Both the position numbers and the translations under genes were made by a program. Positions 1,937 to 28,228 of a stretch of 64,000 bases of DNA are shown in pieces. The stretch is taken from contig JAIJEI010000001.1 of NCBI GenBank assembly GCA_022739095.1, positions 102 to 64,101 on the forward strand, in the 5' to 3' direction. The DNA comes from Bifidobacterium sp. (lineage in GTDB: Bacteria > Actinomycetota > Actinomycetes > Actinomycetales > Bifidobacteriaceae). The notes beneath the pieces were generated by a model. The model did not search any database and was not told where the DNA came from. It worked only from the letters and a program-made list of their open reading frames with translations. Each line of letters opens with the position of its first letter. Position 1 is the first letter of the stretch.

Positions 1937-2000
1937 ATACCCGTTCATAACCAACACATATAGCAACGCCGGCCTTCGGGCCGGCGTCTTGCGTTAAGGT
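1937..2000 (+). promoter_or_regulatory. Conserved ATA-N7-ATA-N9-TATA box plus -10 hexamer TAAGGT (1995)
   Basis: ATA CCCGTTC ATA ACCAACACA TATAG; same geometry at five other promoters in the window. Confidence 0.75.
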
Positions 2001-2063
2001 CGTAATCGTGCCGCGCGGGGAACGGCTTCGCGCAGATGACGCAACACTTTAAGGGGGTGCGCA

Positions 2064-3296
2064 ATGACCAGATTCAATACTCAGCTCGTCCACGGACTGC
2101 CGGTTGACGATAACAACACCGGAGCTGTGAACCCGCCGATTTACAATTCGACGACATATGCCTTTGAGAGGGTCGACGCGATGCCCCGTTACGACTATGC
2201 GCGCAGCGGCAATCCCACACGTGACTTCCTGGAACAGCAGATCGCCCAGCTTGAGCAGGGAACGCGCGGTTTTGCGTTCGCCTCCGGCTTGGCGGCGATT
2301 CATGCCGTGCTCAGCATTTTCAAGCCCGGCGACCGTATTATTGTAGGGGACAACATTTACGGTGGGTCGTATTCGCAGCTCAATGAGTTCTTTACCCGTT
2401 GGGGCGTCGTGGTCGAATCGGTCAATACCCAGGACATTGCAGCGTTGGAGGCCGCCGTCAAGGGCGACCGCGCGAACGGCATCGCGCCTGCCCAAGCCGT
2501 CTACTTTGAAACCCTGACCAATCCACTGCTCAAGGTCAACGATGTACGCGCCATTTCCGCAACGGCCCACCGTTACGGTGCGCTGTCCATCGTGGACAAC
2601 ACGTTCGTGACCCCGTACCTGCAGCAGCCGCTTTCCCTTGGCGCGGATGTGGTAATCCACTCCGCCACCAAGTACCTGGCCGGTCACTCCGATGTCAATG
2701 CCGGTCTCGTGGTCGTCTCCGGTGAGGATTTGTCCAATCGCGTGTACTTCGCCCAGAACCGTCTTGGAGGGGTGCTGGCGCCCACTGAATGCGATTCGGT
2801 GCGCCGCGGCATCCAGACATTGGCCCTGCGCATAGACCGGCAGCAGGAGAACGCGAATGCCATCGCGCGGTACCTGCTTGCGCATCCTCTGGTCAAGTCC
2901 GTTCATTACCCGGGTCTGCCGGGTGCCGGCGACCAGCGACTCGCCGCCAAGGGACTGAAGGGTGCCGGTGGTGTGCTGAGCTTTGAAGTAGTGCCTGGTG
3001 TGGACCCGGCGGATGTGCTCAACAATCTGCACATCTTCCATCTGGCCGTCTCCCTCGGCGCAGTTGAATCGCTCGCGGAATTGCCCTGTCGCATGACCCA
3101 CTTCGAACTGCCCCGTGAGGAGCGTCTGAAGATCGGCATCACCGACGAGCTGGTGCGTCTTGCCATCGGTATCGAGGATGCCAATGACCTGATCGAAGAT
3201 CTTGGTCAGGCTTTCGACATCGCCTACGCCCGTTACCTCGAGCGTCATGCCGATTCCGATATCTTCGGAGAATTGACCTCGGGGGTGTTTGCCTAA
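2064..3296 (+). CDS. Cys/Met metabolism PLP enzyme (cystathionine beta/gamma-lyase or gamma-synthase)
   Basis: YARSGNPT, FASGLAA, DNTF, HSATKYLAGHSD (PLP lysine), VSLGAVESL. Confidence 0.92.
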   Translation: MTRFNTQLVHGLPVDDNNTGAVNPPIYNSTTYAFERVDAMPRYDYARSGNPTRDFLEQQIAQLEQGTRGFAFASGLAAIHAVLSIFKPGDRIIVGDNIYGGSYSQLNEFFTRWGVVVESVNTQDIAALEAAVKGDRANGIAPAQAVYFETLTNPLLKVNDVRAISATAHRYGALSIVDNTFVTPYLQQPLSLGADVVIHSATKYLAGHSDVNAGLVVVSGEDLSNRVYFAQNRLGGVLAPTECDSVRRGIQTLALRIDRQQENANAIARYLLAHPLVKSVHYPGLPGAGDQRLAAKGLKGAGGVLSFEVVPGVDPADVLNNLHIFHLAVSLGAVESLAELPCRMTHFELPREERLKIGITDELVRLAIGIEDANDLIEDLGQAFDIAYARYLERHADSDIFGELTSGVFA

Positions 3297-3331
3297 CCCA
3301 ATATTGTTTTTCTGCCTATTCTTACTCCTGG

Positions 3332-3371
3332 AAGGCGGCGTCGGTTGTGCCACACCGACGCCGCCTTTTCT
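3332..3371 (+). terminator. Intrinsic terminator hairpin
   Basis: AAGGCGGCGTCGGT / ACCGACGCCGCCTT stem followed by T residues. Confidence 0.75.
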
Positions 3372-3458
3372 ATGCCTTTGCATCTGCCTCTATGATGAAT
3401 ATGTTCAAGAACGTCGTAGCCGCATCAGCAAGGTGCGGTGTATCAGGAAAGGCTCAAT

Positions 3459-3710
3459 ATGACCATCGATGTGTACGGTGCCACGTGGTGCGGTGATTGC
3501 CGTCAGGCGAAGAATACGCTGGATGAGCTGGGCGCACAGTACGTCTGGCATAACATCGAGGAAGAAGACGGTGCCGCCGACCGTGCCGTGGCCATCAGCG
3601 GACAGCAGCACATCCCGGTGGTGCTGTATGGCGATGGCTCCTTCCAAGTGGAACCTTCCGCAGTGGATATCAAGAACAAGCTTCAGGAGCTGGGTCTGTT
3701 GGCTGGCTGA
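3459..3710 (+). CDS. Glutaredoxin/mycoredoxin-like redox protein (paralog 1)
   Basis: YGATWCGDC CxxC motif, HIPVV cis-Pro motif; RBS GAAAGG before ATG 3459. Confidence 0.88.
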   Translation: MTIDVYGATWCGDCRQAKNTLDELGAQYVWHNIEEEDGAADRAVAISGQQHIPVVLYGDGSFQVEPSAVDIKNKLQELGLLAG

Positions 3711-3717
3711 GATCGCG

Positions 3718-3743
3718 CAACCGCACTTGTGTAAGTGCGGTTG
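3718..3743. terminator. Hairpin between convergent genes
   Basis: CAACCGCACTT-GTGT-AAGTGCGGTTG perfect 11-bp stem. Confidence 0.65.
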
Positions 3744-4878: not shown

Positions 4879-4893
4879 AATGAGTCCCTGCCT

Positions 4894-5843: not shown

Positions 5844-5870
5844 ATAAGACGCTATAAGAAATGTCTGTAA
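5844..5870 (+). promoter_or_regulatory. ATA-N7-ATA-N9-TGTA box upstream of the UroD-like/Liv operon
   Basis: ATA AGACGCT ATA AGAAATGTC TGTAA; near-identical core to the 14161 box; no TANNNT at +36, but TTGACA at 5890. Confidence 0.6.
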
Positions 5871-6056
5871 TCCATCGGTGGCACTCAGCTTGACACGGGT
5901 ATCGGCGCTGCGGTTCGATGACAATTAACGCATGTAGCCCTGCGCCAATCCCACTATGAGCCAACCCGATTGGTTGGTCGTATCAAGGAAGGTGCGGACG
6001 CATCGACACATCCAACAGATCGTCACAGGTCAGTATCAGTAGAAGGGAACCCGAAC

Positions 6057-7100
6057 ATGGCCAATCGTCGCGCCGTCTTCCATGACATCGCCACTCACAA
6101 GTCCGAAACGCCGTACCTGGTCGGTGCCTGGCAGCATCTCGTCGGCCATGAATACGGCGTCGAGGAATTCGCCAATGCCTACATCGACTTCGTCAAGCGT
6201 TGGGATTGGGAGTGGGTGAAGATCAACCCGCGCGCCGTGTACTACGCCGAGGCTTGGGGTTCTCGCTACGACCGCAACGATTATGCCGGATTCGTGCTGC
6301 CGAAGAAGATCAGCGCCGCGATCACCGAACCGGATGACGTGCGCAAGATCAAGGAATTCAACGCTCCCGACAATGAGTACTTCGCCGAGGCCCTCGCCGC
6401 GGCCGCGCTCATCCGTCAGGGTCTTGAGGATCGTGCCGTGCTGCAGACCATCTTCTCGCCGCTGTCCGTGCTGCTGCAGATTGCCGATCTGCCGCTCTAC
6501 CCGGGCGACGATTACGCCACCGCGACGCTCACCGTCGAAGACGTGATCTTCAACCAACCTGAGGTTGCCAAGCTTGCGCTCGCCAATATCGCCCACACGC
6601 TTGCCTCCTACGCGCGTGCGCTGGTCCGTCCCGAATCCGAAGGCGGCGCCGGGCTCGACGGTGTGTTCTATGCGGTCACCGGCACGGTGAGCGAGGACTA
6701 TTTCGACGCGCAGCGTTACCTTGAATTCTCCGGACCGTACGACCGTATCGTGATCGACGCTGTGCACCGCGCCAACCCGGACGCCGTGGTGCTGCTGCAC
6801 ACCTGTCGCGCCGAATCCCATCCGAACTGGTTCGACACGACGGGCGTGGACCTGCTGCAGTGGGATCAGTACCAGCCGGGCAACCCGAAGGCGGACGCCG
6901 ACCTGACGGCCGCGCCGGTCGCTGGTGCCCCGTACGACCTGTTCACGCCGAATGGCGATGTCGAGCAGGTGCGTCGCGAACTGGCCGAGACCATCAAGTT
7001 GCGTGAAGGCAAACCGTTCCTGCTGGCACCGAGCTGCACGGTGCCGACTCCGGCAAGCGATGAGGTGCTGCAGGCGCTGAGCGACGCCCGCGTGGCCTGA
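6057..7100 (+). CDS. Uroporphyrinogen decarboxylase/MtaA-CmuA-like TIM-barrel protein (paralog 1)
   Basis: QTIFSPLSV, GAGLDGVFY, PYDRIV, LLHTC, FLLAPSCT; no RQAGR motif of true HemE; start set by RBS GAAGGGA. Confidence 0.8.
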   Translation: MANRRAVFHDIATHKSETPYLVGAWQHLVGHEYGVEEFANAYIDFVKRWDWEWVKINPRAVYYAEAWGSRYDRNDYAGFVLPKKISAAITEPDDVRKIKEFNAPDNEYFAEALAAAALIRQGLEDRAVLQTIFSPLSVLLQIADLPLYPGDDYATATLTVEDVIFNQPEVAKLALANIAHTLASYARALVRPESEGGAGLDGVFYAVTGTVSEDYFDAQRYLEFSGPYDRIVIDAVHRANPDAVVLLHTCRAESHPNWFDTTGVDLLQWDQYQPGNPKADADLTAAPVAGAPYDLFTPNGDVEQVRRELAETIKLREGKPFLLAPSCTVPTPASDEVLQALSDARVA

Positions 7101-7165
7101 ACCGTTCGTCGGGAGATCCATCCATCCAGACTTCATGATTTTTTCAAAATAGAGAGGGGAATATC

Positions 7166-8335
7166 ATGACCATCAAAACAACCATCCGCACCGCGGTTGC
7201 GGCCGCGGTCACCGTGGGAACGCTGATCGGCGTCTCCGCATGCGGCCTTGGCGGAGACTCCACCAGCGGCTCCGGCAGCTCCGGCGACACCGTGAACATC
7301 GGCGTCATCTACCCGAAGACCGGCCAGTACGCCGAATACGGCAAGCTGTTCCAGCAGGGCTTCGATCTGGCTGTCGCCAAGGTGAACAAGGACGGTGGCG
7401 TCAAGGGCAAGAAGCTGGGCCTCAAGTACTATGACACCCAGTCCGATGCCAAGCAGGACGCCGCCGTTGCCCCCAAGCTCGTGGCAGACAAGTCGATCAT
7501 CGCCGTGGTCGGCGATTACGCCTCGCCCGCCTCCTCGGCCGCTTCGCCCATTTTCCAGCAGGCCGGACTGGTGCACTACGGCTTCAACAACTCCGCACCG
7601 ACCTTCACCGACACCGGTGACCACGTGTGGACCCCGCAGATCGGCCAGGACAAGTACCAGAAGGCCAATGCGGATATCGTGGCCAAGAAGGCCAAGAAGA
7701 TCTCCGTGGTCTACATCGAGAACGATTGGGGCAAGCAGGCCTACCAGTACTTCAAACAGGAAGCCGAAAAGAACGGTACCCAAATCGTGTACGAGTCCAG
7801 CTACCTGCCCGACTCCACCGACCTGTCTCCGATCCTGATTCCGGCGCGCGATGCCAAGCCCGACGCGGTGGTCGATATCGGCTACGGCCCGGACGGCGCT
7901 CTGGTGATCAACACGCTGCGCGACAAGCTGGGTTACACCGGCCCGTACTTCGGCGGCCAGGAAACCAAGGAATTCCTTGACCTCGCCGGCAAGAACGCCG
8001 AGGGCTCGATTATCACCGGTTCATTCTCCGCCACCGGCACCAAGGATGCCAAGGCCCAGCAGTTCGTCAAGGACTTCAAGGCCAAGTACGGCAACAACCC
8101 GGGCAACTTCGAAGTGACCGCCTACCAGGCGATCATCGATCTCGCCTATGCGGCCAACAAGACCGAACCGACTCGTGAAGGCATCCAGAAGGCGTTGCAG
8201 ACCGTAACCGACTTCCCGCTCTATCAGGGCAACGGCGGCACGTTCAAGTTCAACCAGAAGGACCGTCGCGCCGACAACATCGATCCGATTCTGCTCATCG
8301 CCAAGGATGGCAAGTTCGAACAATACGAAGTCTGA
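7166..8335 (+). CDS. Branched-chain-amino-acid-type ABC substrate-binding lipoprotein (LivJ/K-like)
   Basis: Lipobox VSAC; IGVIYPKTG, NKDGGVKGKKL, AVVGDYAS. Confidence 0.9.
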   Translation: MTIKTTIRTAVAAAVTVGTLIGVSACGLGGDSTSGSGSSGDTVNIGVIYPKTGQYAEYGKLFQQGFDLAVAKVNKDGGVKGKKLGLKYYDTQSDAKQDAAVAPKLVADKSIIAVVGDYASPASSAASPIFQQAGLVHYGFNNSAPTFTDTGDHVWTPQIGQDKYQKANADIVAKKAKKISVVYIENDWGKQAYQYFKQEAEKNGTQIVYESSYLPDSTDLSPILIPARDAKPDAVVDIGYGPDGALVINTLRDKLGYTGPYFGGQETKEFLDLAGKNAEGSIITGSFSATGTKDAKAQQFVKDFKAKYGNNPGNFEVTAYQAIIDLAYAANKTEPTREGIQKALQTVTDFPLYQGNGGTFKFNQKDRRADNIDPILLIAKDGKFEQYEV

Positions 8336-8455
8336 TTTCCGCGGCTTTCCCGTGCTCCGCCGACGCTCCTGCCCTACGGTTCCACCGTATAGGGCCGGGG
8401 GCGTCGGCGAGGTATGGAAGAGGCATCGTAAATCGCAAATGAGGTAACACGCACA

Positions 8456-10270
8456 ATGTTTGATGTTCTTTTCGCCGGACTGATTCACGGCAGCGCCTAC
8501 GCGCTGGTCGCGGTCGGCATGTCGCTGATCTTCGGCGTCACCAACGTGGCCAACTTCGCCCAAGGCTCCATCGTGGCCGTGGGCATGATGATTGCCTGGT
8601 GGCTCGGCTCAACACTGGGATGGGGCATCGTGCCCACATTCGTGGTCGTGGTCGTAGTCACCGCGCTGCTGGGCCTGGTCATGAACGTGGCGGTCATCGC
8701 CCCGCTCGAGGGCCGCAAGCCGATCGCGGCGCTGCTCGCCACCATCGGCGTCGGGCAGGTACTCGACAATGGCCTGCAGATCATTTTCGGGCCGCAGACC
8801 CGCCCGTTCCCGAAACTGCTGGACACCTATAACCTGCAGTTCGCCGGCGTGCGCTTCGGCACCTCGGACATTGTGATGGTGGTGCTCGCTGTCGTCTCGA
8901 TGCTTGGCTTGTGGGCGTTCCTCAAATTCGGCAAGGCCGGGCAAGCCATTCGCTTCACTTCTCAGGATCCCGAGGCCGCCATGCAGATGGGCATCCCGGT
9001 CAAGACCATCCGCAATCTCTCCTTTGTGATCGGTTCCGTGCTCGCCGGCGTCTCCGGTATTTTCGTGGGCCTGTTCAACGGCAACATCAACCCGATGAAC
9101 GGCGGCACCATCGGCATGACCGCATTCGTAGCGGCCACAATCGGTGGTCTGGGATCCATTCCGGGCGCCGTGGTCGGTGGCCTTGTGCTCGGTGTGGTCG
9201 AAGCGTTCGGCATCTCCCTGTTCGGAGACGGTACGCATGATCTCATCACCTTCGGTGCGCTGATCATCATCCTCATCATCAAACCGCAGGGCCTGCTCGG
9301 ACCGAAGACCGACGTGAGGTCCGAACCGCTCACCGGCACGTTCCTCGGTGGTGGCCGGGCGATCACGCTGCCATGGTGGGGTAACCTTATCGGCGCGGTG
9401 ATGCTCGTCGCCACCCCGTTCTTCTTCAACGACTACCTGTCCGGCGTGGGTACGCAGGTCGCCATCTACGCCATAGCCGCTGTGGGGCTGACGTTGATTT
9501 CCGGTTCCGCCGGCCAGACGATTCTCGGCATGGCCGGACCGTTTGCCGTCGGCTCCTATGCCTCCGCGATTCTGACCACTCAGGCGCACTGGCCATTCCT
9601 CGCGGCCTTGCTTGCCGCCGGCGTGATCGCGGCCTTCGCCGCCTCCGTGCTCACCTTCCCGGTGTGGAAGCTCTCCGGCCACTATGTTGCCATCGCCACC
9701 ATCGGCGTAGGCGCGGTGATGGTGGCCATCATCCGCCTTGCAGAGCCATTGACCAAGGGCTCGCTCGGCATCCAGGGCATTCCATTCCCGAAGGTGTTTG
9801 GCTTCACGCTGTACACGCAGCAGATGATGTATCTGCTTGATGTGATCGTGCTGCTCATCACGCTGGTGATCGTCACATGTATTCGCGCCACGCATCTGGG
9901 CCGTGTGTTCGAGGCCGTGGGTGCCGATCGTGAGGCTTCGGAGGCGTTGTCGATTCGCACCGGTGCCTACAAGGCACTCGCTTACGCATTGGCCGCGTTC
10001 TTCGCCGGTCTCGCCGGTTCGCTGCTCGCCCATCAATACACTTACATCGATCCGACGATTTTCAACTCGAATATGTCGATCCTGATTCTGACCATCATCG
10101 TGCTTGGCGGCATGAACTCACCGCTCGGCGCGGTGCTCGGCTCAATCGTGCTCATCGGCGCACCCGAGCTGCTGCGATTCGCCACCGATGCCCGCATCCT
10201 GCTGTACGGCGTACTGCTGGTGCTCGTCATCCTGTTCCGTCCTCAGGGCCTGTTCGCCCGGAAAGGCTGA
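8456..10270 (+). CDS. Fused LivH-LivM ABC permease
   Basis: YALVAVGMSLIFGVTNVANFAQG (LivH half), then LTLISGSAGQ and IIVLGGMNS (LivM half). Confidence 0.9.
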   Translation: MFDVLFAGLIHGSAYALVAVGMSLIFGVTNVANFAQGSIVAVGMMIAWWLGSTLGWGIVPTFVVVVVVTALLGLVMNVAVIAPLEGRKPIAALLATIGVGQVLDNGLQIIFGPQTRPFPKLLDTYNLQFAGVRFGTSDIVMVVLAVVSMLGLWAFLKFGKAGQAIRFTSQDPEAAMQMGIPVKTIRNLSFVIGSVLAGVSGIFVGLFNGNINPMNGGTIGMTAFVAATIGGLGSIPGAVVGGLVLGVVEAFGISLFGDGTHDLITFGALIIILIIKPQGLLGPKTDVRSEPLTGTFLGGGRAITLPWWGNLIGAVMLVATPFFFNDYLSGVGTQVAIYAIAAVGLTLISGSAGQTILGMAGPFAVGSYASAILTTQAHWPFLAALLAAGVIAAFAASVLTFPVWKLSGHYVAIATIGVGAVMVAIIRLAEPLTKGSLGIQGIPFPKVFGFTLYTQQMMYLLDVIVLLITLVIVTCIRATHLGRVFEAVGADREASEALSIRTGAYKALAYALAAFFAGLAGSLLAHQYTYIDPTIFNSNMSILILTIIVLGGMNSPLGAVLGSIVLIGAPELLRFATDARILLYGVLLVLVILFRPQGLFARKG

Positions 10271-10276
10271 TTTGCC

Positions 10277-12109
10277 ATGACTGATTCCGAGACCTCATTC
10301 TCCACAGTCGATGCTGTGACCGGCATCGACATCGACAACGAACGCCTGAACAACGCGGACGATCTGGCCGAATACTCCGAAAAGCACCGCAAGGCCGTAC
10401 TCGGTGCGCCCGTGGTGCTGCGTGTACGCGAGCTCGACAAGTCCTTCGAGGGTCTGCACGCCGTCAACAAGGTTTCTTTTGACCTGCATCAGGGCGAGGT
10501 CATCTCCATCATCGGGCCGAACGGTTCGGGCAAATCGACCACAATCAATCTGATTTCCGGGTTCCTGACCCCCGATTCCGGACTTATCGACCTCGCCGAT
10601 GAACCGGTCGCCGGACTGAGCTCCGCAGACATGTCCGAACGAGGACTGTCGCGCACCTTCCAGAACGGTCGTGTGTTCGGCGGCCTCACCGTCGACGAAA
10701 ACATCAACCTTGGCTATCACAAGCGACTGGTTGCGGCCCGTCCGTTCAAAGGCCTGCAGAAATATCCGATCGTGCGTTGGCTGCCATTGCTCGCCGAAAC
10801 CGGCGTGGCATTGGTGCCCGGACCGAAGGCCCGTCGCGAGGCGAACGAGGTGAACATCCGCGTGGGCCGTGAAATCGACCGCTTCCGCGAACGACTCGGT
10901 ACGCGCCAGCAGGACCTTGCCTACACGCTGTCATACGCGAACCGACGCCGTACCGAAATCGCCCGCGCCCACATCAGCGAGCCGAGGATTCTGCTGCTTG
11001 ACGAGCCGACCGCCGGCATGAACCAGTCGGAAACCGCCGAGGTACTCCAGCAGCTGCAGTACCTCAAAGTGCAGGGCCACACCATTCTGCTGGTCGAACA
11101 CAAGATTGACCTGGTCACCGCACTGTCCGACCGTGTGCTCGCAATGGATGGCGGCCGCATCATCGCGGAAGGCGCCCCGGACGACGTACGTAACGCCCCG
11201 CAGGTGGTCGAGGCGTACCTCGGCAAGCGGCGCGAAGTGAACCAGACCCGCGTCACCGGGCAGTCGGATGTGCTCGCGATGCAGAACTCCATTGAAGCGT
11301 CTCAGGCCACCGGTGCCATAGCCGAAGTGGAGGAACGTGACGCCGATGCCGAGCAAAACAAGGCCGAGACGTTGAAGGAAGACAAGGCGGCGTTGCTTGC
11401 CCTCGATGATGTGAACGTGTATTACGGGCAGGTCCATGCGTTGCAGAACGTATCGATTCGTGTGCCCAAGGGCGCCATCGTTTCCCTGCTCGGCGGCAAC
11501 GCCTCCGGCAAATCGACCACGATGAAGACGATTCTGGGCATCAACCACCCGAAAACCGGCTCGCTCTGGTATCAGGGACAGGACATCACCAAACTTCCCA
11601 CTCGTAAACGTGTGGAGACGGGCATCGCCGCCGTGCCTGAAGCGAGGCGCGTGTTCCCGCAGATGACCGTGCAGGAGAACCTGCTATCCGGCGCATATAC
11701 GCGAAAAGACAAAAATGGCATATCCACCGATCTGGAAGCCATGTACGAGCGTTTCCCGCGTTTGAAGGAACGCCGTACACAGCAGGCTGGCACGATGTCC
11801 GGCGGCGAGCAGCAGATGCTTGCATTCGCGCGAGCTTTGATGAGCCATCCGAAGATCATCTGCATGGATGAGCCCACGATGGGTCTGTCGCCCAAGCTCG
11901 TCGAGGACGTGCTCGAACAAATCGCGCGTCTGCGTGACGAACTTGGCGTATCCGTGCTTATGGTCGAGCAGCAGGCCGAACTGGCCCTGTCGATCGCCGA
12001 CTACGGCTATGTGCTGCAGAACGGGCGCATTCGACTGCACGGCAAGGCCAGTGATCTGCTCGGCAACGCACAGGTGCAGGAAGCCTACTTGGGAGGAGCG
12101 AAACAATGA
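10277..12109 (+). CDS. Fused LivG-LivF ABC ATP-binding protein
   Basis: Two ATPase domains: GPNGSGKST/LLDEPTAG and GGNASGKST/MSGGEQQM. Confidence 0.9.
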   Translation: MTDSETSFSTVDAVTGIDIDNERLNNADDLAEYSEKHRKAVLGAPVVLRVRELDKSFEGLHAVNKVSFDLHQGEVISIIGPNGSGKSTTINLISGFLTPDSGLIDLADEPVAGLSSADMSERGLSRTFQNGRVFGGLTVDENINLGYHKRLVAARPFKGLQKYPIVRWLPLLAETGVALVPGPKARREANEVNIRVGREIDRFRERLGTRQQDLAYTLSYANRRRTEIARAHISEPRILLLDEPTAGMNQSETAEVLQQLQYLKVQGHTILLVEHKIDLVTALSDRVLAMDGGRIIAEGAPDDVRNAPQVVEAYLGKRREVNQTRVTGQSDVLAMQNSIEASQATGAIAEVEERDADAEQNKAETLKEDKAALLALDDVNVYYGQVHALQNVSIRVPKGAIVSLLGGNASGKSTTMKTILGINHPKTGSLWYQGQDITKLPTRKRVETGIAAVPEARRVFPQMTVQENLLSGAYTRKDKNGISTDLEAMYERFPRLKERRTQQAGTMSGGEQQMLAFARALMSHPKIICMDEPTMGLSPKLVEDVLEQIARLRDELGVSVLMVEQQAELALSIADYGYVLQNGRIRLHGKASDLLGNAQVQEAYLGGAKQ

Positions 12110-12861: not shown

Positions 12862-12914
12862 CAGTGGCAATCAAGTATTGCAAGTATTGCCGATACCCTT
12901 CCCGAGGAGGTACA

Positions 12915-17337: not shown

Positions 17338-17401
17338 TTCGTCAATACTCCAATCGCATGCATGGCATGCATACTCATGGAACATAATTAGGGGGAGGGC
17401 C

Positions 17402-18045
17402 ATGAAATCCACTATCACAACATCCATTGCAGCCGTACTGGCGCTGGGATTAACCGTCGGATTGGGAGGTTGTGGAACAGACAATGCCGCCGGTACTTCC
17501 AACGGGAAGAAAGATGAACAGCTTTCTGGCACGGTATCCGTGGCTATATTTGGTGGAAGTACAAGCAGCTGTTACAGCAATACGTGAAGCCTGAATTCCA
17601 CAAAGTTGCGCCAAATGTCAAGATTGTTTATACGGAAAGTATCAATTCAAACGATTACATTGCTAAAGCCATTGCCGAAAAGAATTCCAATAAGGGCACT
17701 TTTGATGTGTTGATTACAGGCTCAACGGGCACCGCACAATTGGAACAGTCCGCCAAATTGGCGAAACTCGATGCCGAGGACATCAGTAATCTCGCTAACC
17801 TCAAATCAGAATACAAAGACGACCAATACTTCGCCCCTCAGATTTACAGCGCAATCACTCTTGCCTACAACACTGACAAGATCAAGGACGCGCCTACCTC
17901 ATGGGATGTGCTGTTTAGCGACAAATACAAAGACAAAATGGGCGTGATGTCTAACCTAGAGCAATACTGGGCGTTCGCCGCTGCCTCCACACAGACCAAG
18001 AAGCCTCTTGACGAAAACTGGAAAATCGCAGATATCGTGAGGTAG
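17402..18045 (+). pseudogene. Polyamine-type ABC substrate-binding protein, frameshifted and truncated
   Basis: Lipobox LGGC; frame change near 17555 (FGG / YKQLLQQYVKPEF); LAYNTDKI..PTSWDVLF; ends prematurely. Confidence 0.75.
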
Positions 18046-18049
18046 ATCA

Positions 18050-19693: not shown

Positions 19694-19757
19694 ATAGAAG
19701 CGGATAACCAACGTCTATAGGTCGGGGAGCGTTTCCGGTCGTTTGGAATAGTATATT
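19694..19757 (+). promoter_or_regulatory. ATA-N7-ATA-N9-TATA box plus -10 TATATT (19752)
   Basis: ATA GAAGCGG ATA ACCAACGTC TATAG; 36-bp spacing conserved. Confidence 0.72.
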
Positions 19758-19912
19758 GTGAAACCGGCTGCCGGATAATACGTCGGCGTGCGCCGCATGT
19801 GTCATGGTTGGGACTTGACGGGCGGCACACAGGGAAAGAGCACATCACATATGCGTCGGCATCATATTCGTCGCGGCCATGTGAGTGCACATACATGAAC
19901 ATGGGGGAGACC

Positions 19913-20608
19913 GTGCTGCAACTATCCGACCTTGGGTACAGAGTCAAGGGCCGCACCATCCTGGACGGCGTGGACCTTACGGTGAACGCCGGCGAGACAG
20001 CTGTGATCCTTGGGCCTTCGGGCGTGGGCAAATCCACATTGCTGAAGAACATCACGTTCCTTAAGCGGCCTGATCGGGGCACGGTTTCGCTCGACGGCCA
20101 CAGCGTGACGGCACCGAACGTCAGTTCGGCCGACGTATTGCGACTGCGCAAGGCAATAGCCACGGTATTCCAGACCTATCCGCTGTTCAATCATCGGACG
20201 GTGCTGGAGAACATCGTCGAACCATTGCGCCTCGTACACGGCAATGACCGGCATCAGGCGGAACAGATCGCTCAGAGCAATCTTGAACTGTTCCGCCTGG
20301 GGGACAAAGGCGACGCTATGCCGCGAGAATTGTCCGGTGGCGAGAAACAGCGCGTGAGCATTGCCCGCGCGCTCGCGGCAAAACCCAAGGTCGTGCTGTT
20401 CGACGAGCCGACGTCCGCACTTGACCACGAACTGGTCGGTGAGGTCTGCCAGATGGTCCGCACCTTGGCGGACAAGGGCATCGCCAATGTGGTGGTGACG
20501 CACGATATCGACTTCGCGCGTCGCCTTGATGCCGCGGTATATGAACTCGATCAGGGTGTGCTGCACCGGTTGAGCGGCGTCGACGAATTCGTCGAGTCGC
20601 ACAGCTGA
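19913..20608 (+). CDS. Polar amino-acid ABC ATP-binding protein
   Basis: GPSGVGKST, LSGGEKQR, FDEPTSALD; GTG start after GGGGGAGA. Confidence 0.88.
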   Translation: MLQLSDLGYRVKGRTILDGVDLTVNAGETAVILGPSGVGKSTLLKNITFLKRPDRGTVSLDGHSVTAPNVSSADVLRLRKAIATVFQTYPLFNHRTVLENIVEPLRLVHGNDRHQAEQIAQSNLELFRLGDKGDAMPRELSGGEKQRVSIARALAAKPKVVLFDEPTSALDHELVGEVCQMVRTLADKGIANVVVTHDIDFARRLDAAVYELDQGVLHRLSGVDEFVESHS

Positions 20609-20679
20609 ACATCAAATATACCGCACTCGCGTATATACCGCACATACTCACCAACGTTTTAAGAGAAGGGACTCCTATC

Positions 20680-21540
20680 ATGACCATCACCACACGTACA
20701 CGCCGCTCGGCACGCAATTGGAAGCGCTCCATCGTCGCCTTGACCTGCTCGATCGCAGCGCTTGTCTCACTCGCCGCCTGCGGTGGCCAAGGTGCATCCG
20801 CCGGTGCGGACTCCGGGGCCAAGACCATCAACATCGCTGTGGCGGCGAACTCCAAGCCGCTGAGCTACACCGACGACAGCGGCCAGCTCGCCGGCTATGA
20901 GGTCGATGTGCTCAAGGCCATCGACAAGGATCTTAATGACTACACCTTCAAGTACGAGGCAGTGGCCGATGACGCGGAAACTGTGGGTATTGACTCTGGC
21001 AAGTACGCACTGATCACCGGTGGCTACTTCAAAACCGATGAGCGAGTCAAGAAGTACCTCATTCCGGACGACACCACCGGCATCTCGCTGATGAAGGTGT
21101 ACACGCTGCCTTCGCGCACCGACATCAAGTCGCTTGACGATCTGCATGGCAAGAAGGTCGCGCCGATCTCACCCGACGGCGGTGTGAACAAGCTCGTCAC
21201 AAAGTACAACGCCGAGCACCCGGACAAGGCAATCGACGTGACCCATCAGGACAACATCACGATGGCCGCGAACTTCCAGGGACTGGTCGACAAGAAATAC
21301 GATGCGGTGATCGAGCCGGAGCAGAGCTTCGACGTGAACGCGATCCGTAAGAGCCTGGGTGTGAAGTTCCGCGCCACCGAACCGGTGGAAGTGGATCGTC
21401 AGTACTTCCTCGTCTCCAAGAAGCAGCCCGAATTCTTCAAGGAACTCAACACGGCCATCACCAAGCTCAAGGATGACGGCACCTTGAAGCAGCTGGCCGT
21501 CAAGGACTACGGCGAGGACGTCTTCAAGTACGACAAGTGA
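20680..21540 (+). CDS. Amino-acid ABC substrate-binding lipoprotein (TcyJ/K-like)
   Basis: Lipobox LAAC; GYEVDVLKAI; LKDDGTLKQL. Confidence 0.87.
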   Translation: MTITTRTRRSARNWKRSIVALTCSIAALVSLAACGGQGASAGADSGAKTINIAVAANSKPLSYTDDSGQLAGYEVDVLKAIDKDLNDYTFKYEAVADDAETVGIDSGKYALITGGYFKTDERVKKYLIPDDTTGISLMKVYTLPSRTDIKSLDDLHGKKVAPISPDGGVNKLVTKYNAEHPDKAIDVTHQDNITMAANFQGLVDKKYDAVIEPEQSFDVNAIRKSLGVKFRATEPVEVDRQYFLVSKKQPEFFKELNTAITKLKDDGTLKQLAVKDYGEDVFKYDK

Positions 21541-21625
21541 TGGGTCTGCCGCACGGGGAACGTGTGCCGCGTAACGCACATAGCGTGCAAAAAACACCGA
21601 AAATACAAGGAAATGTGAAAGGAGA

Positions 21626-22354
21626 ATGGCCGTGGATTTCGCATACGTGATATCCTTGATTTCGGCATTCGTGGCGAAACTGCCGTACACGCTGCTCATC
21701 GTCGTGGGATGCTACGCCGTGGCGTTCGTCCTGGCCTACCTGATTCTGCGTGTCAGGGTCGATCGGTTGCCGGTGCTGTCCACACTGCTGGACATCTACG
21801 TCTCCTTCGTGCGTTGCGAGCCGATCGTATTGTTGCTGTTCCTTATCTACTTCGGCCTGCCACAGCTGCTGTTCGGTTTCGGCATCGATATCAGTTCGGC
21901 CAGCAAAACCGCATTCGCCTGCGTCACCTTGGTGTTCTTCAACGCCGGATGGCTGAGTGAGATTTTGCGCGGTGCCTACCTGAGCGTGACGCCCGACCAG
22001 TTCGAACTCGCCGACTCACTCGGTTATTCCAAGGGTCAGCTGTGGCGACGCACGTTGCTGCCGCAGATTATCGGCATCGCCATCCCCGATCTTGGCAACG
22101 CCGCAGTCGATCTGCTCAAGGACACTTCGCTGCTGTACACGATTGGCATGATCGACATGATGGGTCTCGCCTCGATCAAGGTGGCGAACAACTACGGCGT
22201 ACATCAGTCAGAGGTGTATCTGGCGGTCGCCTTGGTCTATTGGGCCGCCGCGTTGGTTATTGAAGCAGTGATTTATCTGGCCAAACGGTCCAACCGATAC
22301 TACCGGGTCATTGATGCGCTTTCGCGCGACCGGACCGGCATCGCACGTGTGTGA
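21626..22354 (+). CDS. Amino-acid ABC permease (TcyL-like)
   Basis: YVSFVRCEP, SEILRGA, LLKDTSL. Confidence 0.87.
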   Translation: MAVDFAYVISLISAFVAKLPYTLLIVVGCYAVAFVLAYLILRVRVDRLPVLSTLLDIYVSFVRCEPIVLLLFLIYFGLPQLLFGFGIDISSASKTAFACVTLVFFNAGWLSEILRGAYLSVTPDQFELADSLGYSKGQLWRRTLLPQIIGIAIPDLGNAAVDLLKDTSLLYTIGMIDMMGLASIKVANNYGVHQSEVYLAVALVYWAAALVIEAVIYLAKRSNRYYRVIDALSRDRTGIARV

Positions 22355-22411
22355 GCGCAGACGGTCGGGAATGGGCGAACGAGATAGACGACTGAGTCAA
22401 GACAGGAACGA

Positions 22412-23113
22412 TTGACAATGCAATTCTTTGGATACTTTCTCCAAATACTGGGTGTGGTGCCAGCCGTGCTACTGCGGGCTGTGGCGATTCTCGCAATTGG
22501 ACTGGTACTGGGCACGCCGATCGCACTTGCCCTGCGTGCACATGTGCCCGTGCTTGCCCAGCTGCTGCGCTTGTACACCTCGTTCTTCCGCGGCACCCCC
22601 ATACTGGTGCAGCTGCTGTTCTGGTACTATCTGCTGCCGCAGTGGTCGTCCTCTCTGCTCAATACGGTCGGCTTCCATGTGAGCAAGAATTCCGTCAGCG
22701 CCGATGTGGTGCTCATCTTCACGTTTGCGTTGGTCTATGCCGCATACCTGCAGGAGACCGTGCAGGCATCGCTGGCCTCGATCGATCCCAACCAATTGGA
22801 ACTGGCTGATTCGCTCGGCTACACACGCTGGCAGAAGGCAATACACATCATCATCCCGCAAGCGGTCGTGTATGCGTTGCCGAACCTGTTCAACCAGTTC
22901 CTGAACATTCTCAAGGCGCTGTCGATGGGCTTTACCATTGCCGTGATCGACCTGTTCGCCAAAGCGAAACTCATCGCGGGCCTGAACGGCGACTATATGG
23001 CGTCGTACAGTGCCACTGCACTGGTCTACTGGCTGGTGTGCGGTGTGCTGTTCCTGCTCATGAACTGGTACTTGAAGCGACGTGACGCCTCGCTGGTCGA
23101 AGCGCGATTGTAG
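22412..23113 (+). CDS. Amino-acid ABC permease (TcyM-like)
   Basis: YTSFFRGTPILVQL, IIIPQA. Confidence 0.87.
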   Translation: MTMQFFGYFLQILGVVPAVLLRAVAILAIGLVLGTPIALALRAHVPVLAQLLRLYTSFFRGTPILVQLLFWYYLLPQWSSSLLNTVGFHVSKNSVSADVVLIFTFALVYAAYLQETVQASLASIDPNQLELADSLGYTRWQKAIHIIIPQAVVYALPNLFNQFLNILKALSMGFTIAVIDLFAKAKLIAGLNGDYMASYSATALVYWLVCGVLFLLMNWYLKRRDASLVEARL

Positions 23114-23237
23114 CCAACGACCGTTTGGTGAAACAGCCAGCACGCCATTCATTCCAATGATTTTTCCTTCCCGTCGTCTGCCGCACGACGGGGTAAGGCA
23201 CCATACCGCGGCCATCATCACCATGAAAGGGAATACC

Positions 23238-24269
23238 ATGAGTCGAGACCGTAGGCAGGAGTTCCACGACCTTGCAGCCGGAAAGGGCACGGTGCCGTAT
23301 CTGACCAGCGCTTGGCAGCACTTCATCGGCAACGAATACGATGTCGAGCGCCAGGCTTGGGCGCACATCAACTTTGTGCGCAAGTGGGACTGGGATTGGG
23401 TCAAGATCAACCCGCGCAGCGCCTACTACACGGAAAGCTGGGGCGCGCGTTTCGATCCGAACGACTATGGTACCGGACGTTCCCCGCGCCTGCTCGACGT
23501 GCCGGTGCATGAGACGGGTGATCTGGCGAAGATCACGCCGCTCGATCCCACATCGGCGAAACCGTTTGCGGACCAGCTTGCCTCCGCGCGCATCATCCGC
23601 CGGGAACTCCCCGATAGGGCGATTCTCGAAACCGTGTTCTCCCCGCTCACCGTGCTGCTCGGCCTTGCCGGACTGCCTCGCATCAATGGCAAGGCGCTCT
23701 ACGGCATAGCCCCCACACTCACCAAGGACGAACTGCTGTTTACCGACGAACGTGCGACAGCCAAGGCACTTGATGCCATTACCGAGACTTTGGTGGACTA
23801 CGTGCGAACGGCTCTTGCGCCCGTGGAGCAGAGCGGTGCCGGCCTCGATGGCGTCTTCTACGCTGAAACCGGCATGGCGAGCCGTGGGTACTTCACCCAT
23901 GAACAGTTCCTCAAACTCGCACGCCCCTATGATGAACGTATTCTGGAGGCGGTCGGCGACGGCGTGAAACTGCTGCATACCTGCCGTGACCACGCCAATC
24001 CTGACTGGTTCGCCGATTATGACATCGATTTCCTGCAATGGGATCAGTACGTCCCCGGCAATCCGCCGATCAGCGACGACTTCAATGCTGTGGCGGTGGG
24101 CGGCCCTGACGCCGTGCTCATCGGCGAAGGCACGGATGCGGACGAACTCCGCCATCAGGTGAAGGCGACGCTCGATGAGCGTCGGGGCAGGCCGTTCCTG
24201 CTCGCCCCGAGCTGCACGATTCCGCCTCGCCCGGATGACGAGCATCTGCGTATCCTTCGCGAGGCATGA
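23238..24269 (+). CDS. Uroporphyrinogen decarboxylase/MtaA-CmuA-like protein (paralog 2)
   Basis: Shares AWQH, WDWDWVKINPR, GAGLDGVFY, LLHTC, LQWDQY, PFLLAPSCT with 6057-7100; RBS AAAGGGA. Confidence 0.8.
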   Translation: MSRDRRQEFHDLAAGKGTVPYLTSAWQHFIGNEYDVERQAWAHINFVRKWDWDWVKINPRSAYYTESWGARFDPNDYGTGRSPRLLDVPVHETGDLAKITPLDPTSAKPFADQLASARIIRRELPDRAILETVFSPLTVLLGLAGLPRINGKALYGIAPTLTKDELLFTDERATAKALDAITETLVDYVRTALAPVEQSGAGLDGVFYAETGMASRGYFTHEQFLKLARPYDERILEAVGDGVKLLHTCRDHANPDWFADYDIDFLQWDQYVPGNPPISDDFNAVAVGGPDAVLIGEGTDADELRHQVKATLDERRGRPFLLAPSCTIPPRPDDEHLRILREA

Positions 24270-24777: not shown

Positions 24778-24841
24778 ATAGCGTTCTATAGGTAACTCGT
24801 ATAGCCACGCCGGTCCGCCGTCGACGACTTCGCACTAGGGT
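24778..24841 (+). promoter_or_regulatory. ATA-N7-ATA-N9-TATA box plus -10 TAGGGT (24836)
   Basis: ATA GCGTTCT ATA GGTAACTCG TATAGCCACGCCGG. Confidence 0.75.
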
Positions 24842-24906: not shown

Positions 24907-25665
24907 ATGATCCAGATCAGATCGGTGAGCAAGAGCTTCAACGGCACCAGGGTGCTGGACGGGCTCGACCTCGACATCCCGCGTCAGAATGTGGTCACGG
25001 TGATCGGGCCGTCCGGCTCCGGCAAGTCCACGCTGCTGCGTATTCTGGACTTCCTTGAGCAGGCCGATTCCGGCACCGTCGACTTCGGCGACGGTCCGGT
25101 GGACCTGACCACCACCAACACCGCCGACATCCGCAAGGTGCGTTCGAAGATCGGGTTCGTGTTCCAGAACTACAACCTGTTCCTCAACAAAAATGCCCTG
25201 CAGAACGTGGCCGAGGGGCTGATCTACTCGCGCGGCGTCAAGCCGGAACAGGCGCGCAAGATTGCCCTCGAACAGCTTGACCGGGTCGGTCTGGCGGACT
25301 TTGCCGACCGGTACCCGAGCACGCTATCCGGTGGCCAGCAGCAGCGCGTGGGTATCGCCCGCGCCGTGGCGCTCAACCCGGAACTGCTGGTGCTCGACGA
25401 GCCGACCTCCGCCCTGGACCCGGAAATGGTCACCGGTGTGCTTGAGGTCATCAAGCAGCTGGGCCGGGACGGCATGACCATGCTTATGGTCACCCACGAG
25501 ATGCGCTTCGCCTACGAGGCGTCGAGCAGCGTGGTGTTCATCGAAGGCGGGCACGTGGTCGAGCAGGGAGATCCCAAGCAGATCTTCGAGCACCCTACGC
25601 AGCAGCGAACTGCGGAGTTCCTGTCGTCCACCAACAACGTGCTGATGATTCCGGCGGCCGCCTGA
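24907..25665 (+). CDS. Cystine-type ABC ATP-binding protein (TcyC-like)
   Basis: GPSGSGKST, FQNYNLF, LSGGQQQRVGIARA, DEPTSALDPE. Confidence 0.92.
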   Translation: MIQIRSVSKSFNGTRVLDGLDLDIPRQNVVTVIGPSGSGKSTLLRILDFLEQADSGTVDFGDGPVDLTTTNTADIRKVRSKIGFVFQNYNLFLNKNALQNVAEGLIYSRGVKPEQARKIALEQLDRVGLADFADRYPSTLSGGQQQRVGIARAVALNPELLVLDEPTSALDPEMVTGVLEVIKQLGRDGMTMLMVTHEMRFAYEASSSVVFIEGGHVVEQGDPKQIFEHPTQQRTAEFLSSTNNVLMIPAAA

Positions 25666-25783
25666 CGATCCGATGAGGCGGCAGGCGTGCCCAGCGGCAT
25701 CGCCGTCGCCATCGGCATTGCATCCAAGATTTTCCCTAATAGATCAACCAATGAGAGACCAACCAAGAGAGGGGTTTGTCATC

Positions 25784-26629
25784 ATGTCCAATACCCATGG
25801 AGTGTTCCGCAAGGCCGTGGCCCTGCTGTCCGGCGTAGCCGTGCTGTTTTCGCTGGCCGCGTGCGGCTCGTCGTCCGCCGGCGATTCCGGCTCGTCCGCC
25901 TCCGGCAAGACCTCGACCAGCGCGCTGGAGCAGGTCAAGTCCGCTGGCAAGATCGTGTTCGCCACCGAAGGCACCTACGCGCCGTTCAGCTACCACGATT
26001 CCAAGACCAACGAACTGACCGGCTACGACGTGGAGGTGGCCACCGCCATCGCCAAGGAGATCGGCGTCAAGGCCGAGTTCGCCGAGGGCAGCTTCGACTC
26101 GCTGCTCGCCGGCGTGGACGCCAAGAAGTACGACACGGTCGCCGACCAGATCAGCGCCACCGACGAGCGCAAGGCCAAGTACGACTTCACCGAGCCGTAC
26201 ACCTACTCGTACGGCGTGGTCGTGACCACCAAGGACAACCCGAAGGGCGTCAAGTCCTTCGAGGAAGTCAAAGGCCTGAAGGCCGCCGAAACCGGCACCA
26301 GCAACTGGAACAAGACCGCCCAGGAGAAGGGCGCCGAAATCGTGCAGGTCAACGACTTCGGCCAGGCCGTCGAGGCCCTGCAGTCCGGCCGTGCCGACGT
26401 GACCCTCAACGACGGTCTCGCCGTGCTCGACTACCTCAAGCAGAAGCCGGACGCGAACATCAAGATCGCCGCCAAGTCCGAGAAGACGCCGGCCGCCCAG
26501 CTGCCGTTTCGCAAGGGCGGCGACGACCTAGTCAAGGTCGTGAACGACGCCATCGCGAAGCTGCAGAAGGACGGCACCCTGACCAAGATTTCCGAGAAGT
26601 ACTTCGGCGAGGACTTCTCACAGGAGTGA
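25784..26629 (+). CDS. Cystine-binding lipoprotein (TcyA/FliY-like)
   Basis: Lipobox LAAC; ATEGTYAPFSYHD, GYDVEV, ERKAKYDF. Confidence 0.9.
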   Translation: MSNTHGVFRKAVALLSGVAVLFSLAACGSSSAGDSGSSASGKTSTSALEQVKSAGKIVFATEGTYAPFSYHDSKTNELTGYDVEVATAIAKEIGVKAEFAEGSFDSLLAGVDAKKYDTVADQISATDERKAKYDFTEPYTYSYGVVVTTKDNPKGVKSFEEVKGLKAAETGTSNWNKTAQEKGAEIVQVNDFGQAVEALQSGRADVTLNDGLAVLDYLKQKPDANIKIAAKSEKTPAAQLPFRKGGDDLVKVVNDAIAKLQKDGTLTKISEKYFGEDFSQE

Positions 26630-26692
26630 CGGCCGCCGTATCAGGTACCGTAACAACGCAATAACCGCATCACACAGGCAAAGGACAAGGCA

Positions 26693-27355
26693 ATGGACGC
26701 ACGGGTATGGTCGATAGTGGTGGATTCCTTCGGCAAGCTCCTTATTCCGGGACTTACCGTGACCATCCCGCTCACCCTGATCTCATTCGCCCTCGGCCTG
26801 CTGCTGGCGATCATCGTCGCGCTGATCCGCGTGGCCAAAGTGCCGGTCGCGGCGCAGATCGCCTGGGTGTACGTGTGGGTGTTCCGAGGCACACCTCTGC
26901 TGGTGCAGCTATTCGTGATCTTCTTCGGCCTGCCCTCCATCGGCATCACGATTCCCGCGCTGCCGTCCGCCGTGATCGCGTTCTCGCTCAACGTGGGTGC
27001 GTACGCTTCGGAAACGTTGCGCGGCGCGATTTTGGCCGTGCCGAAAGGCCAGCTTGAGGCCGGATACGCGGTCAACATGCCGTACGTGACGATCATGCGG
27101 CGCATTGTGCTGCCGCAGGCGTTCCGTTCGGCCTTCCCCGCACTGTTCAACACGTTCATCGGACTGGTCAAGGACACGTCGCTGGCCGCCAACATCACCG
27201 TGGTGGAGATGTTCATGGCCGCCCAGCGCGTGGTGGCCGTCTACTACGAGCCGCTGGTACTGTATATCGAGGTGGGCCTGATCTACCTGCTATTCAGCAC
27301 GGTGCTCACCTGGCTGCAGCAGTACTGCGAGAAGAAACTCAACGCGCACTTCTGA
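26693..27355 (+). CDS. Cystine-type ABC permease (TcyB-like)
   Basis: FRGTPLLVQLF, LNVGAYASETLRGA, LVKDTSLA. Confidence 0.9.
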   Translation: MDARVWSIVVDSFGKLLIPGLTVTIPLTLISFALGLLLAIIVALIRVAKVPVAAQIAWVYVWVFRGTPLLVQLFVIFFGLPSIGITIPALPSAVIAFSLNVGAYASETLRGAILAVPKGQLEAGYAVNMPYVTIMRRIVLPQAFRSAFPALFNTFIGLVKDTSLAANITVVEMFMAAQRVVAVYYEPLVLYIEVGLIYLLFSTVLTWLQQYCEKKLNAHF

Positions 27356-27429
27356 TGGGTTTCATCACTCACGACAAAGTTCGTGACGACGATGAACCAT
27401 AACGAGCAATTACGATCAAAGGAGCAAAC

Positions 27430-27678
27430 ATGGCCATTGACGTGTACGGAGCCAGCTGGTGTGGCGATTGCCACCGTGCCAAGGCCGCGCTGAACGATCT
27501 CGGCGCCGCATTCAACTGGCACGACATCGAAACCGAGGAAGGCGCGGCGGACCGCGCGGTCGCCATCAGCGGCCAGAAGCACATCCCCGTCGTCCTTTAC
27601 TCGGACGGCGCCTTCCAGGTCGAACCCTCCGCGCTCGACATCAAGAACAAGCTTGAGGCTCTGGGCGAGCTGAAGTAG
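27430..27678 (+). CDS. Glutaredoxin/mycoredoxin-like protein (paralog 2)
   Basis: YGASWCGDC; aligns end to end with 3459-3710; RBS AAAGGAG. Confidence 0.88.
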   Translation: MAIDVYGASWCGDCHRAKAALNDLGAAFNWHDIETEEGAADRAVAISGQKHIPVVLYSDGAFQVEPSALDIKNKLEALGELK

Positions 27679-27812
27679 TTTCGCCTCAGCCCTCTTTCTG
27701 AGGTTTCCGCCATTCATATCTAAGGGTCGGTGACATAAGCTACTGGCTCTTTTCGTATATGTTCCGAACGAATACAGATTACAGAAGCAAAACGGCCATG
27801 CCTACCATTCAG

Positions 27813-28109
27813 CCGTCGCCATTCCGCCAAACCTTGGCCGGTTGGCGACGCTCATGGATGCTTGCGTCGCCAACCTGCCAAAAGCTGGCAAGACGGCGAC
27901 GCTCAAACCGCTTAGCGGCGCTACCTTGCCAGTGTTTGGTCGGATAACGACGCTAAAAGGCGTCTTAGCGTCGCCGAGTCGCCATGGACTGGCCTCTTGA
28001 CTACGCTGACGTGTCGTGAGCGTCGCTGTCCTGCCAAACCTTGGACGGTTGGCGACACTGGGTCCCGCAATCGCTGCCGACCTGCCAGTCCGTGGCGGCT
28101 TGACAACGC
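27813..28109. repeat. Array of six degenerate 39-bp palindromic units, period 51-53 bp
   Basis: Units start 27813, 27864, 27915, 27968, 28020, 28071; consensus GCGTCGC-N6-GCCA-N5-TGGC-N6-GCGACGC. Confidence 0.85.
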
Positions 28110-28164
28110 GGGGATGCTGTTCTTCGGACTTGGACCCCACAAAACGACTGAAAAACGTGAAGCC

Positions 28165-28228
28165 ATAGCTTCGTATAAACGAACGATATAACAACACCGG
28201 TCAGACTGCAATCATTTTGCGTTAAGGT
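28165..28228 (+). promoter_or_regulatory. ATA-N7-ATA-N9-TATA box plus -10 TAAGGT (28223)
   Basis: ATA GCTTCGT ATA AACGAACGA TATAACAACACCGG; TTGCGTTAAGGTCG shared with the 1995 promoter. Confidence 0.78.

Follow-up and report, generated by a model that had tools for sequence, protein, structure and literature searches.

A shared promoter box points to a probable LysR-type regulon of cysteine and methionine supply in Bifidobacterium

We analysed a 64,000-nucleotide stretch of a Bifidobacterium sp. genome (assembly GCA_022739095.1, contig JAIJEI010000001.1, positions 102 to 64,101; hereafter the window), in which seven promoters carry a common box, ATA-N7-ATA-N9-T(A/G)TA, mostly followed by a -10 hexamer at a fixed distance. 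The genome (G000) is 81% complete. The first 35 kb of the window form a cysteine/methionine island containing a cystathionine lyase, a MetY-like enzyme, three polar amino acid ATP-binding cassette (ABC) systems, Liv and Opp systems that each end with an M20 amidohydrolase gene, and two URO-D-family genes. The boxes and the units around them are as follows.

19..1841, + strand: cystine-type ABC operon, ATPase and binding protein; synteny with G081, G014 and G023
1937..1971, + strand: Box 1, with upstream ATA, dyad at 1947-1962 and tail GCAACGCCG
1995..2000, + strand: predicted -10 TAAGGT of the cystathionine lyase gene
2064..3296, + strand: cystathionine gamma-lyase/synthase family pyridoxal phosphate enzyme (PF01053; best NCBIfam model PRK07671, below cut-off)
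5844..5869, + strand: Box 2, without a -10 at 36 bp
5970..14123, + strand: operon of an MtaA-like protein (URO-D family), a Liv-type ABC system, a short-chain dehydrogenase/reductase (SDR) oxidoreductase and an M20 amidohydrolase
14151..14214, + strand: Box 3 and its predicted -10 TACACT (14209)
14261..15592, + strand: O-acetylhomoserine sulfhydrylase (MetY)-like gene (TIGR01326, 460 bits; cut-off 495)
15958..16021, + strand: Box 4 and its predicted -10 TAGGTT (16016)
16166..19099, + strand: decaying unit of an M24 peptidase, a binding protein and a PotA-like ATPase; no permease seen
19694..19757, + strand: Box 5 and its predicted -10 TATATT (19752)
19799..24269, + strand: polar amino acid ABC operon (ATPase, binding protein, two permeases) with a second MtaA-like protein
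24778..24841, + strand: Box 6, with tail GCCACGCCG, and its predicted -10 TAGGGT (24836)
24907..27355, + strand: cystine-type ABC operon, ATPase, binding protein and permease
28165..28228, + strand: Box 7 and its predicted -10 TAAGGT (28223)
28350..35384, + strand: Opp-type ABC operon, the last gene encoding an M20 amidohydrolase

The boxed promoter of the ABC operon that opens the window lies on another contig, C146, as judged by synteny with G081. In the decaying unit, the M24 peptidase gene is broken near its 5' end by a short tandem duplication (window 16166-18045), and the binding-protein gene after it is frameshifted and truncated.

The seven boxes claimed in a preliminary description of this DNA were all found on the + strand at the positions listed, with a transcription unit after each, and a strict search of both strands of the window returned these seven and no others. 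A TANNNT hexamer 36 bp on, counted from the start of the last T(A/G)TA to the start of the hexamer, was present in six of them (hexamers at 1995, 14209, 16016, 19752, 24836 and 28223). Chance would give 0.022 strict boxes per window, against 7 seen, and 0.55 per genome, against 12 seen. Three hundred local-composition shuffles of the window gave a mean of 0.06 matches and a maximum of 2, and none contained a box together with a -10. The pattern had been fitted to these seven sites, so we relied on tests elsewhere, and results obtained out of sample carry more weight.

In the whole genome, TANNNT occurred at offset 36 in 9 of 61 dyads, three of them outside the window, and at any other offset in at most four; controls in which the dyad was a base too short (60 sites) or too long (51 sites) peaked at only 3 and 2. 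The scan of relatives proposed in the preliminary description was positive: the box with its -10 gave 77 matches in 42 of 100 other Bifidobacterium genomes, whereas a reversed control pattern gave 8 matches in 7 of the same genomes. When the -10 was not imposed, the hexamer lay at exactly 36 bp in 41 of 67 matches (counted by eye) and at 37 bp in 4 more; the remaining matches were mostly AT-rich and due to chance. A matrix scan of the own genome, also proposed earlier, gave only moderate leave-one-out ranks, 9 to 57 among 4.2 million positions. With a cross-genus matrix, 14 of the top 15 matches in the genome were the seven window sites and seven others, located before ybaK, the C146 ABC operon, metA, an operon on contig C238, luxS, a glutamine amidotransferase gene and a second metY; the 15th looks false. 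The metA, luxS, glutamine amidotransferase and second metY sites were outside the training set of this matrix.

The box was seen before metA, metY, cystathionine lyase, luxS, ybaK, metNIQ and cystine-type ABC genes. Among 40 loci fetched from relatives, 32 led to these families or to further ones (MetQ/MetN, SsuA-type ABC, class I aminotransferase, ketopantoate-reductase-like and prenylcysteine-lyase-like), six led elsewhere and two were unresolved; in a second set, 19 of 20 led to these families. Both sets were picked by eye. The orthologous site of Box 1 was kept in G014, G023, G033, G061 and G081. The earlier proposal that the Liv, Opp and peptidase/PotA units belong to sulfur metabolism gained support for the first two: the Liv/URO-D and Opp units keep their box in other species, including an orthologous oppA in G024, which supports this placement. 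The peptidase/PotA unit appears to be decaying in this strain and is therefore weak evidence of current function.

The consensus of 34 non-redundant sites consisted of RTAR, six bases, (C/T)ATAR, a GCAAC-like segment and TATA, then RCNACGCCG, which extends to the -35 position. At its core is the dyad ATAR-N8-TRTA, with an RCNACRC tail and often an extra RTAR 10 bp upstream. The C(A/C)AC(G/A)CCG continuation noticed earlier is real, carrying 0.4-1.0 bit per position in the 34 sites. When only the dyad and the -10 were required, 113 sites were found in 60 of the 100 genomes, and their upstream triplet was ATA in 42 and GTA in 17 (by eye). Thus, the dyad of the originally claimed pattern stood, but its first ATA is enriched and optional (RTA in 59 of 113). 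The -35 region was poor, with at most two positions matching TTGACA in 44 of 59 sites.

We then considered the -10 element and its spacing. metA is leaderless, its ATG lying 6-7 nt after CATAAT; in our genome the metA box is 36 bp upstream of the -10, and the ATG is exactly 70 nt after the box start, coinciding with the predicted start site. In G122, the lyase orthologue (93% identical) has TTCAAT-17-TATGGT located 62 nt before the ATG, and Bbr_0641 of B. breve is listed with the same -35, spacer, -10 and 62-nt distance (PMC5746004, supplement 3). The -10 assignment is real, supported independently by leaderless metA and by the Bbr_0641 listing. The parts of the B. breve table considered here contain no metA or metY unit, and its luxS row (GAACAT) disagrees with the hexamer predicted by us (PMC5746004).

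Using a matrix trained on non-metA sites and a score above 8, which 2 of 1000 random windows reached, we found the box in 19 of 29 scored metA promoters. In 18 of these 19, the distance from box to CATAAT was 36 bp (11 promoters), 37 bp (one), 47 bp (two), 56 bp (one) or 57 bp (three); the remaining promoter had no CATAAT. For luxS, a box above 8 was found in 15 of 28 scored loci, and the distance in 12 of the 15 was 36 bp (one locus), 37 bp (two), 46 bp (six) or 47 bp (three), with TACGAT as the -10 in 11. The "exactly 36 bp" of the preliminary description is therefore the commonest spacing but not the only one, as the metA and luxS orthologues have phased spacings of 36-37, 46-47 and 56-57 bp. 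Steps of 10-11 bp would be the tolerance expected of an activator that touches RNA polymerase from one face of the helix. Two other kinds of element were considered and set aside. An RNA-level element was rejected by reasoning, without an Rfam search, as the box lies upstream of the -10 and is untranscribable at leaderless metA. An alternative sigma factor was judged unlikely, the box shifting by whole turns relative to an ordinary -10.

The genome encodes two LysR proteins, on contigs C283 and C136. The first is the candidate regulator.

Contig C283, 195-1118: candidate LysR gene ('cysB'; PF00126 and PF03466; orthologue of BBPR_0960)

The LysR of our genome is 97-99% identical to LysR of named Bifidobacterium species. 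The C283 LysR was found in 96 of the 100 genomes and in 84 of 85 near-complete ones, as a single copy in 94 of the 96, and it was the sole LysR common to five box-rich genomes that we checked. Other families of the order gave weak matches only, and beyond the genus 12 of 300 genomes of the phylum had homologues of the regulator. The published B. bifidum 'cysB' primers map to the C283-type gene (189-bp product, with 0 and 5 mismatches); on glutathione, cysB, cysK, metA and metB of B. bifidum rose together and metE was unchanged (PMC4656816). The comparative evidence as a whole supports the earlier claim of a LysR-type sulfur regulon whose activator is encoded outside the window.

An ATA-N9-TAT dyad spans the start codon of the LysR gene itself in 58 of 78 loci (L008:1118-1135 in our genome), and a TANNNT hexamer often lies at -12 of this gene; this arrangement suggests a gene that would be leaderless and self-repressed. 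The nearest plasmid-borne relatives of the C283 protein were Firmicutes and Rhodococcus proteins of 47-55% identity. Four of five homologue loci that we opened (47-51% identity) adjoin methionine synthase genes, and each of those four promoters contains ATAG-N7-CTATA, with a -10 at 49-50 bp in three. At the Priestia locus this site is identical to the CmhR/MtaR consensus of S. pneumoniae (PMC5359408). On Rhodococcus plasmid NZ_CP092103.1 (L122:4803-7927), a 48%-identical LysR gene with the same dyad is transcribed divergently from a methionine synthase gene and another, unannotated one; the LysR/methionine synthase module has moved into another actinobacterial lineage. We presume that the C283 protein resembles CpsY/MtaR. 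Apart from this, the C283-type gene is split in G009 (C1:505538-506457) and has an internal stop in G030 (C1:1240902-1241822), and G124 (95% complete) lacks a box and gave no match to the LysR, to metE or to luxS.

Bifidobacterial metE promoters carry the dyad and an RCGACAC tail in 29 of 30 loci, with the -10 at 50 bp (27 loci) or 51 bp (two) and a weak second dyad 23 bp downstream of the strong one. The metE dyad is the same as that of the 36-bp class; thus, one dyad occurs in two geometries within one genome. The mirror image of the metE layout, a full dyad 23 bp 5' of the box, was not seen in the 36-bp class, as positions -30 to -1 were unconserved in the 34 sites.

Taken together, the box is likely the operator of a single genus-wide LysR ('cysB', C283), a predicted activator of genes for cysteine and methionine supply; we put the probability of this reading at roughly 0.7. 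The LysR would activate sigma-70-type promoters when usable sulfur amino acid is short. A tetramer would occupy the dyad, centred at about -53, on the same face of the helix as RNA polymerase, and the bound protein would compensate for the weak -35 and recruit the polymerase. The tail and, where present, the upstream RTAR would provide extra contacts. At metE, the same protein would read a strong dyad at about -67 and a weak one at about -44, a two-site layout that perhaps gives a different response to the effector. The most likely effector would be homocysteine or a related transsulfuration intermediate. Enterobacterial MetR, for its part, acts differently on metE and on metA/metH in the presence of homocysteine.

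Several observations weigh against this reading. At site 5844 the hexamer at the 36-bp offset is TCGGCG, not TANNNT. Downstream (3') of this Box 2 lies TTGACA-18-TTCGAT (5890-5919), conserved in seven related loci (L317-L323); TTCGAT, a weak hexamer, may serve as its -10 at 48 bp, and the site may be a phased spacing variant. The B. breve start sites are approximate, with errors of 13-32 nt, and their hexamers were chosen by motif search (PMC5746004). With dyad and -10 required, 40 of the 100 genomes had no match, and a box above threshold was not found in 13 of 28 luxS and 10 of 29 metA loci; related genomes, in addition, are not independent of each other. As the C283 LysR is near-universal, its co-occurrence with the box is not discriminating, and G072 (76% complete) has a site and no match for the regulator. 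An inner CAA conserved in the 36-bp class is absent from the metE sites, and the inner TTTnAAA of streptococcal MetR/MtaR/CmhR sites is absent from both classes. A loose dyad search of five genomes of the phylum that have homologues and lie outside the window's class gave no signal above the reversed control. In streptococci and lactococci, the -53 layout is credited to CmbR and the metE layout to MetR/MtaR.

The last of these points leads to the alternative that survives best, which we nevertheless consider unlikely: a second activator, either a CmbR-like paralogue missing from the assembly or a non-LysR protein, reads the 36-bp class, leaving the C283 LysR in control of metE and its own gene alone. 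The 36-bp class does differ from the metE sites in geometry and inner bases, and its centring at -53, together with a repeat upstream, agrees with what is described for lactococcal CmbR. Moreover, the rise of metA and metB in B. bifidum was not shared by metE (PMC4656816), and in an assembly 81% complete a paralogue could be missed. However, the outer dyad, the flanks and the RCNACRC tail are common to both classes, the near-complete genomes G014 and G061 have no other LysR in common, and a second member of the family occurs in only 2 of the 100 genomes. Two specific candidates for the common activator were rejected, the regulators considered being those of the LysR family and one AraC gene. 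A LysR of the island region, 17-25 kb off in G014, G023 and G033, is absent from G061 and was not found in our genome; an AraC gene behind ybaK in G023 is not general, being absent from that position in G068 and G028 and having no orthologue in our genome (best identity 24%).

It is improbable that the C283 LysR acts on the box mainly as a repressor in high cysteine, like S. pneumoniae CmbR, which has been reported as a repressor with an ATA-N9-TAT site (PMC5131005). A capacity of the protein to repress is suggested by the dyad that covers the start codon of its gene, but a box upstream of the -35, a poor -35 and whole-turn spacing are what an activator needs, not an upstream repressor site. 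We regard as very improbable that the activator is the C136 LysR, encoded upstream of a MalY/PatB-type lyase gene. It adjoins a sulfur lyase in our genome, and in G061 the island itself contains its orthologue, but it is present in only 23 of the 100 genomes and was not found in nine with 2-4 strict boxes (G014, G017, G023, G027, G033, G063, G068, G116 and G117). Finally, false matches do arise in AT-rich genomes and regions and the pattern was fitted after the fact, but an artefact of AT-rich promoter DNA, or of promoters duplicated within one island, can practically be dismissed, since sites outside the window and the genome precede unrelated sulfur genes, the sites have flanks unrelated to one another, and both kinds of control, reversed and mis-spaced, stay flat.

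We also examined the two URO-D-annotated genes of the island (5970-7100 and 23082-24269), whose products are 44% identical. H248, C250 and C327 were invariant in seven of seven close sequences, and H248 and C327 in 55. A single-sequence search of the Protein Data Bank with the URO-D protein found nothing, and an Atlas search returned URO-D clusters only. A profile of the 55 sequences compared with solved structures matched MtaA (4AY7) best, with an E value of 1.8e-24 against 6e-11 for true UROD, and the H-x-C motif and the late Cys aligned with those of MtaA. Both genes are more likely to encode zinc thiol-alkyl transfer enzymes than haem enzymes. Unlike MtaA, a methylcobalamin:coenzyme M methyltransferase, they have no corrinoid protein or methanogenic context among the annotated genes of the window.

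A wider version of the single-LysR reading is possible but in our judgement doubtful: one Firmicutes-derived LysR with two promoter grammars would run the whole sulfur economy, and its regulon would expose an unrecognised scavenging route. The two-site metE promoter and the phased single dyad would then give opposite or separate effector logic, and the one LysR would do work that in streptococci is divided among MetR, CmbR and HomR. The Liv, Opp and polar ABC systems would import S-substituted cysteine or methionine derivatives, from which MtaA-like zinc enzymes lacking a corrinoid partner and M20 amidohydrolases would release the sulfur amino acid.

Other boxed genes were noted during the scans. 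The C238 operon (L004:2113-6737) encodes proteins of 315 and 673 aa and an SDF symporter; the two proteins belong to no convincing Pfam or NCBIfam family, and the operon and its box are conserved in G061, G074, G008 and G026. A gene with a YbaK/tRNA-editing domain (L003:668-1222, contig C6) is among the commonest boxed targets and is often the first gene of an operon for an amino acid ABC system. The gene of a prenylcysteine-lyase-like flavoprotein in G117 (L240:2601-3980) has its box at 47 bp. On contig C120, a Pfs/MTA-SAH nucleosidase-family gene (L006:6137-7006) is divergent from a binding-protein gene that has a degenerate box with TATATT at 36 bp.

Within the island, the spacer between Box 1 and its -10 (window 1963-1992) forms a GC-rich hairpin with arms around TTCG, the same in G014, G017, G023, G063, G081 and G117; it may double as the terminator of the upstream ABC operon, which ends at 1841. 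On the - strand at 4090-5697, a glyoxalase-like gene and a ProC-like reductase gene are transcribed away from Box 2. The pair occupies the same place in related loci, and in G022 a boxed promoter lies directly 5' of the ProC-like gene; the dyad of Box 2 may act leftwards too. A small glutaredoxin-like open reading frame with C-x-x-C (27435-27683), spotted by eye, follows the third ABC operon.

According to published accounts, most bifidobacteria require cysteine, and little is known of how they metabolise sulfur amino acids (PMC7817509, PMC9026213). In the literature covered, with RegPrecise and most subscription papers outside its scope, no regulator site has been described for these genes in Bifidobacterium. 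The box provides a testable operator with a named candidate regulator in genetically tractable species. As a marker of function, it would tie transporters and enzymes of unassigned substrate to sulfur supply in gut bacteria: ybaK, the glutamine amidotransferase, the ketopantoate-reductase-like gene, the two-gene unit with the SDF symporter, and the genes of the Liv, Opp and MtaA-like proteins are those it marks as likely to serve sulfur supply. With their natural 36/47/57 series of spacings, the orthologous promoters offer a face-of-helix experiment already laid out.

We compared the predicted regulon with known LysR sulfur systems. Enterobacterial CysB and proteobacterial MetR are likewise LysR activators of sulfur amino acid genes, and 'cysB' is the label of the C283-type gene in B. 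bifidum. An identity with enterobacterial CysB was rejected, as the C283 protein scored 69 bits against the CysB model (cut-off 436); against the MetR model it scored 50 (cut-off 382). The proteobacterial MetR site, ATGAA-N5-TTCAT, is also unlike the bifidobacterial dyad.

The system resembles CmbR/FhuR (CysR) of Lactococcus lactis and streptococci, in which the box is centred 46-53 bp before the start with a second repeat upstream, the core is ATA-N9-TAT, and cysteine uptake and metA are targets (PMC5131005). If the start lies 7 nt past the hexamer, which is what leaderless metA implies, the bifidobacterial box would be centred at -53. In contrast to CmbR/FhuR promoters, the bifidobacterial spacer is GC-rich. 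The LysR proteins listed for five near-complete genomes included no separate CmbR paralogue, and 94 of the 96 genomes have one family member. O-acetylserine, the CmbR effector, is doubtful in bifidobacteria because they have been reported to lack cysE (PMC7817509); cysE is annotated in B. bifidum (PMC4656816).

The MetR/MtaR/CmhR regulon of streptococci, with the site TATAGTTTSAAACTATA (PMC5359408), shares with the bifidobacterial system the LysR family, an ATAR-N8-TATA outer dyad of equal length (17 bp, with matching TATAG and CTATA outer half-sites) and sites before metE, a metB-type lyase gene and metQ. Between the half-sites, the bifidobacterial 36-bp class has a GCAACGC-like consensus, and the metE sites vary. 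Further differences are the RCNACRC tail, the single dyad at about -53, -63 or -74 of most targets, the actinobacterial host, and a wider regulon that includes cystine, peptide and sulfonate-type ABC systems, luxS, ybaK and the MtaA-like enzymes. Overall, the bifidobacterial system is probably a streptococcal-type LysR sulfur regulon.

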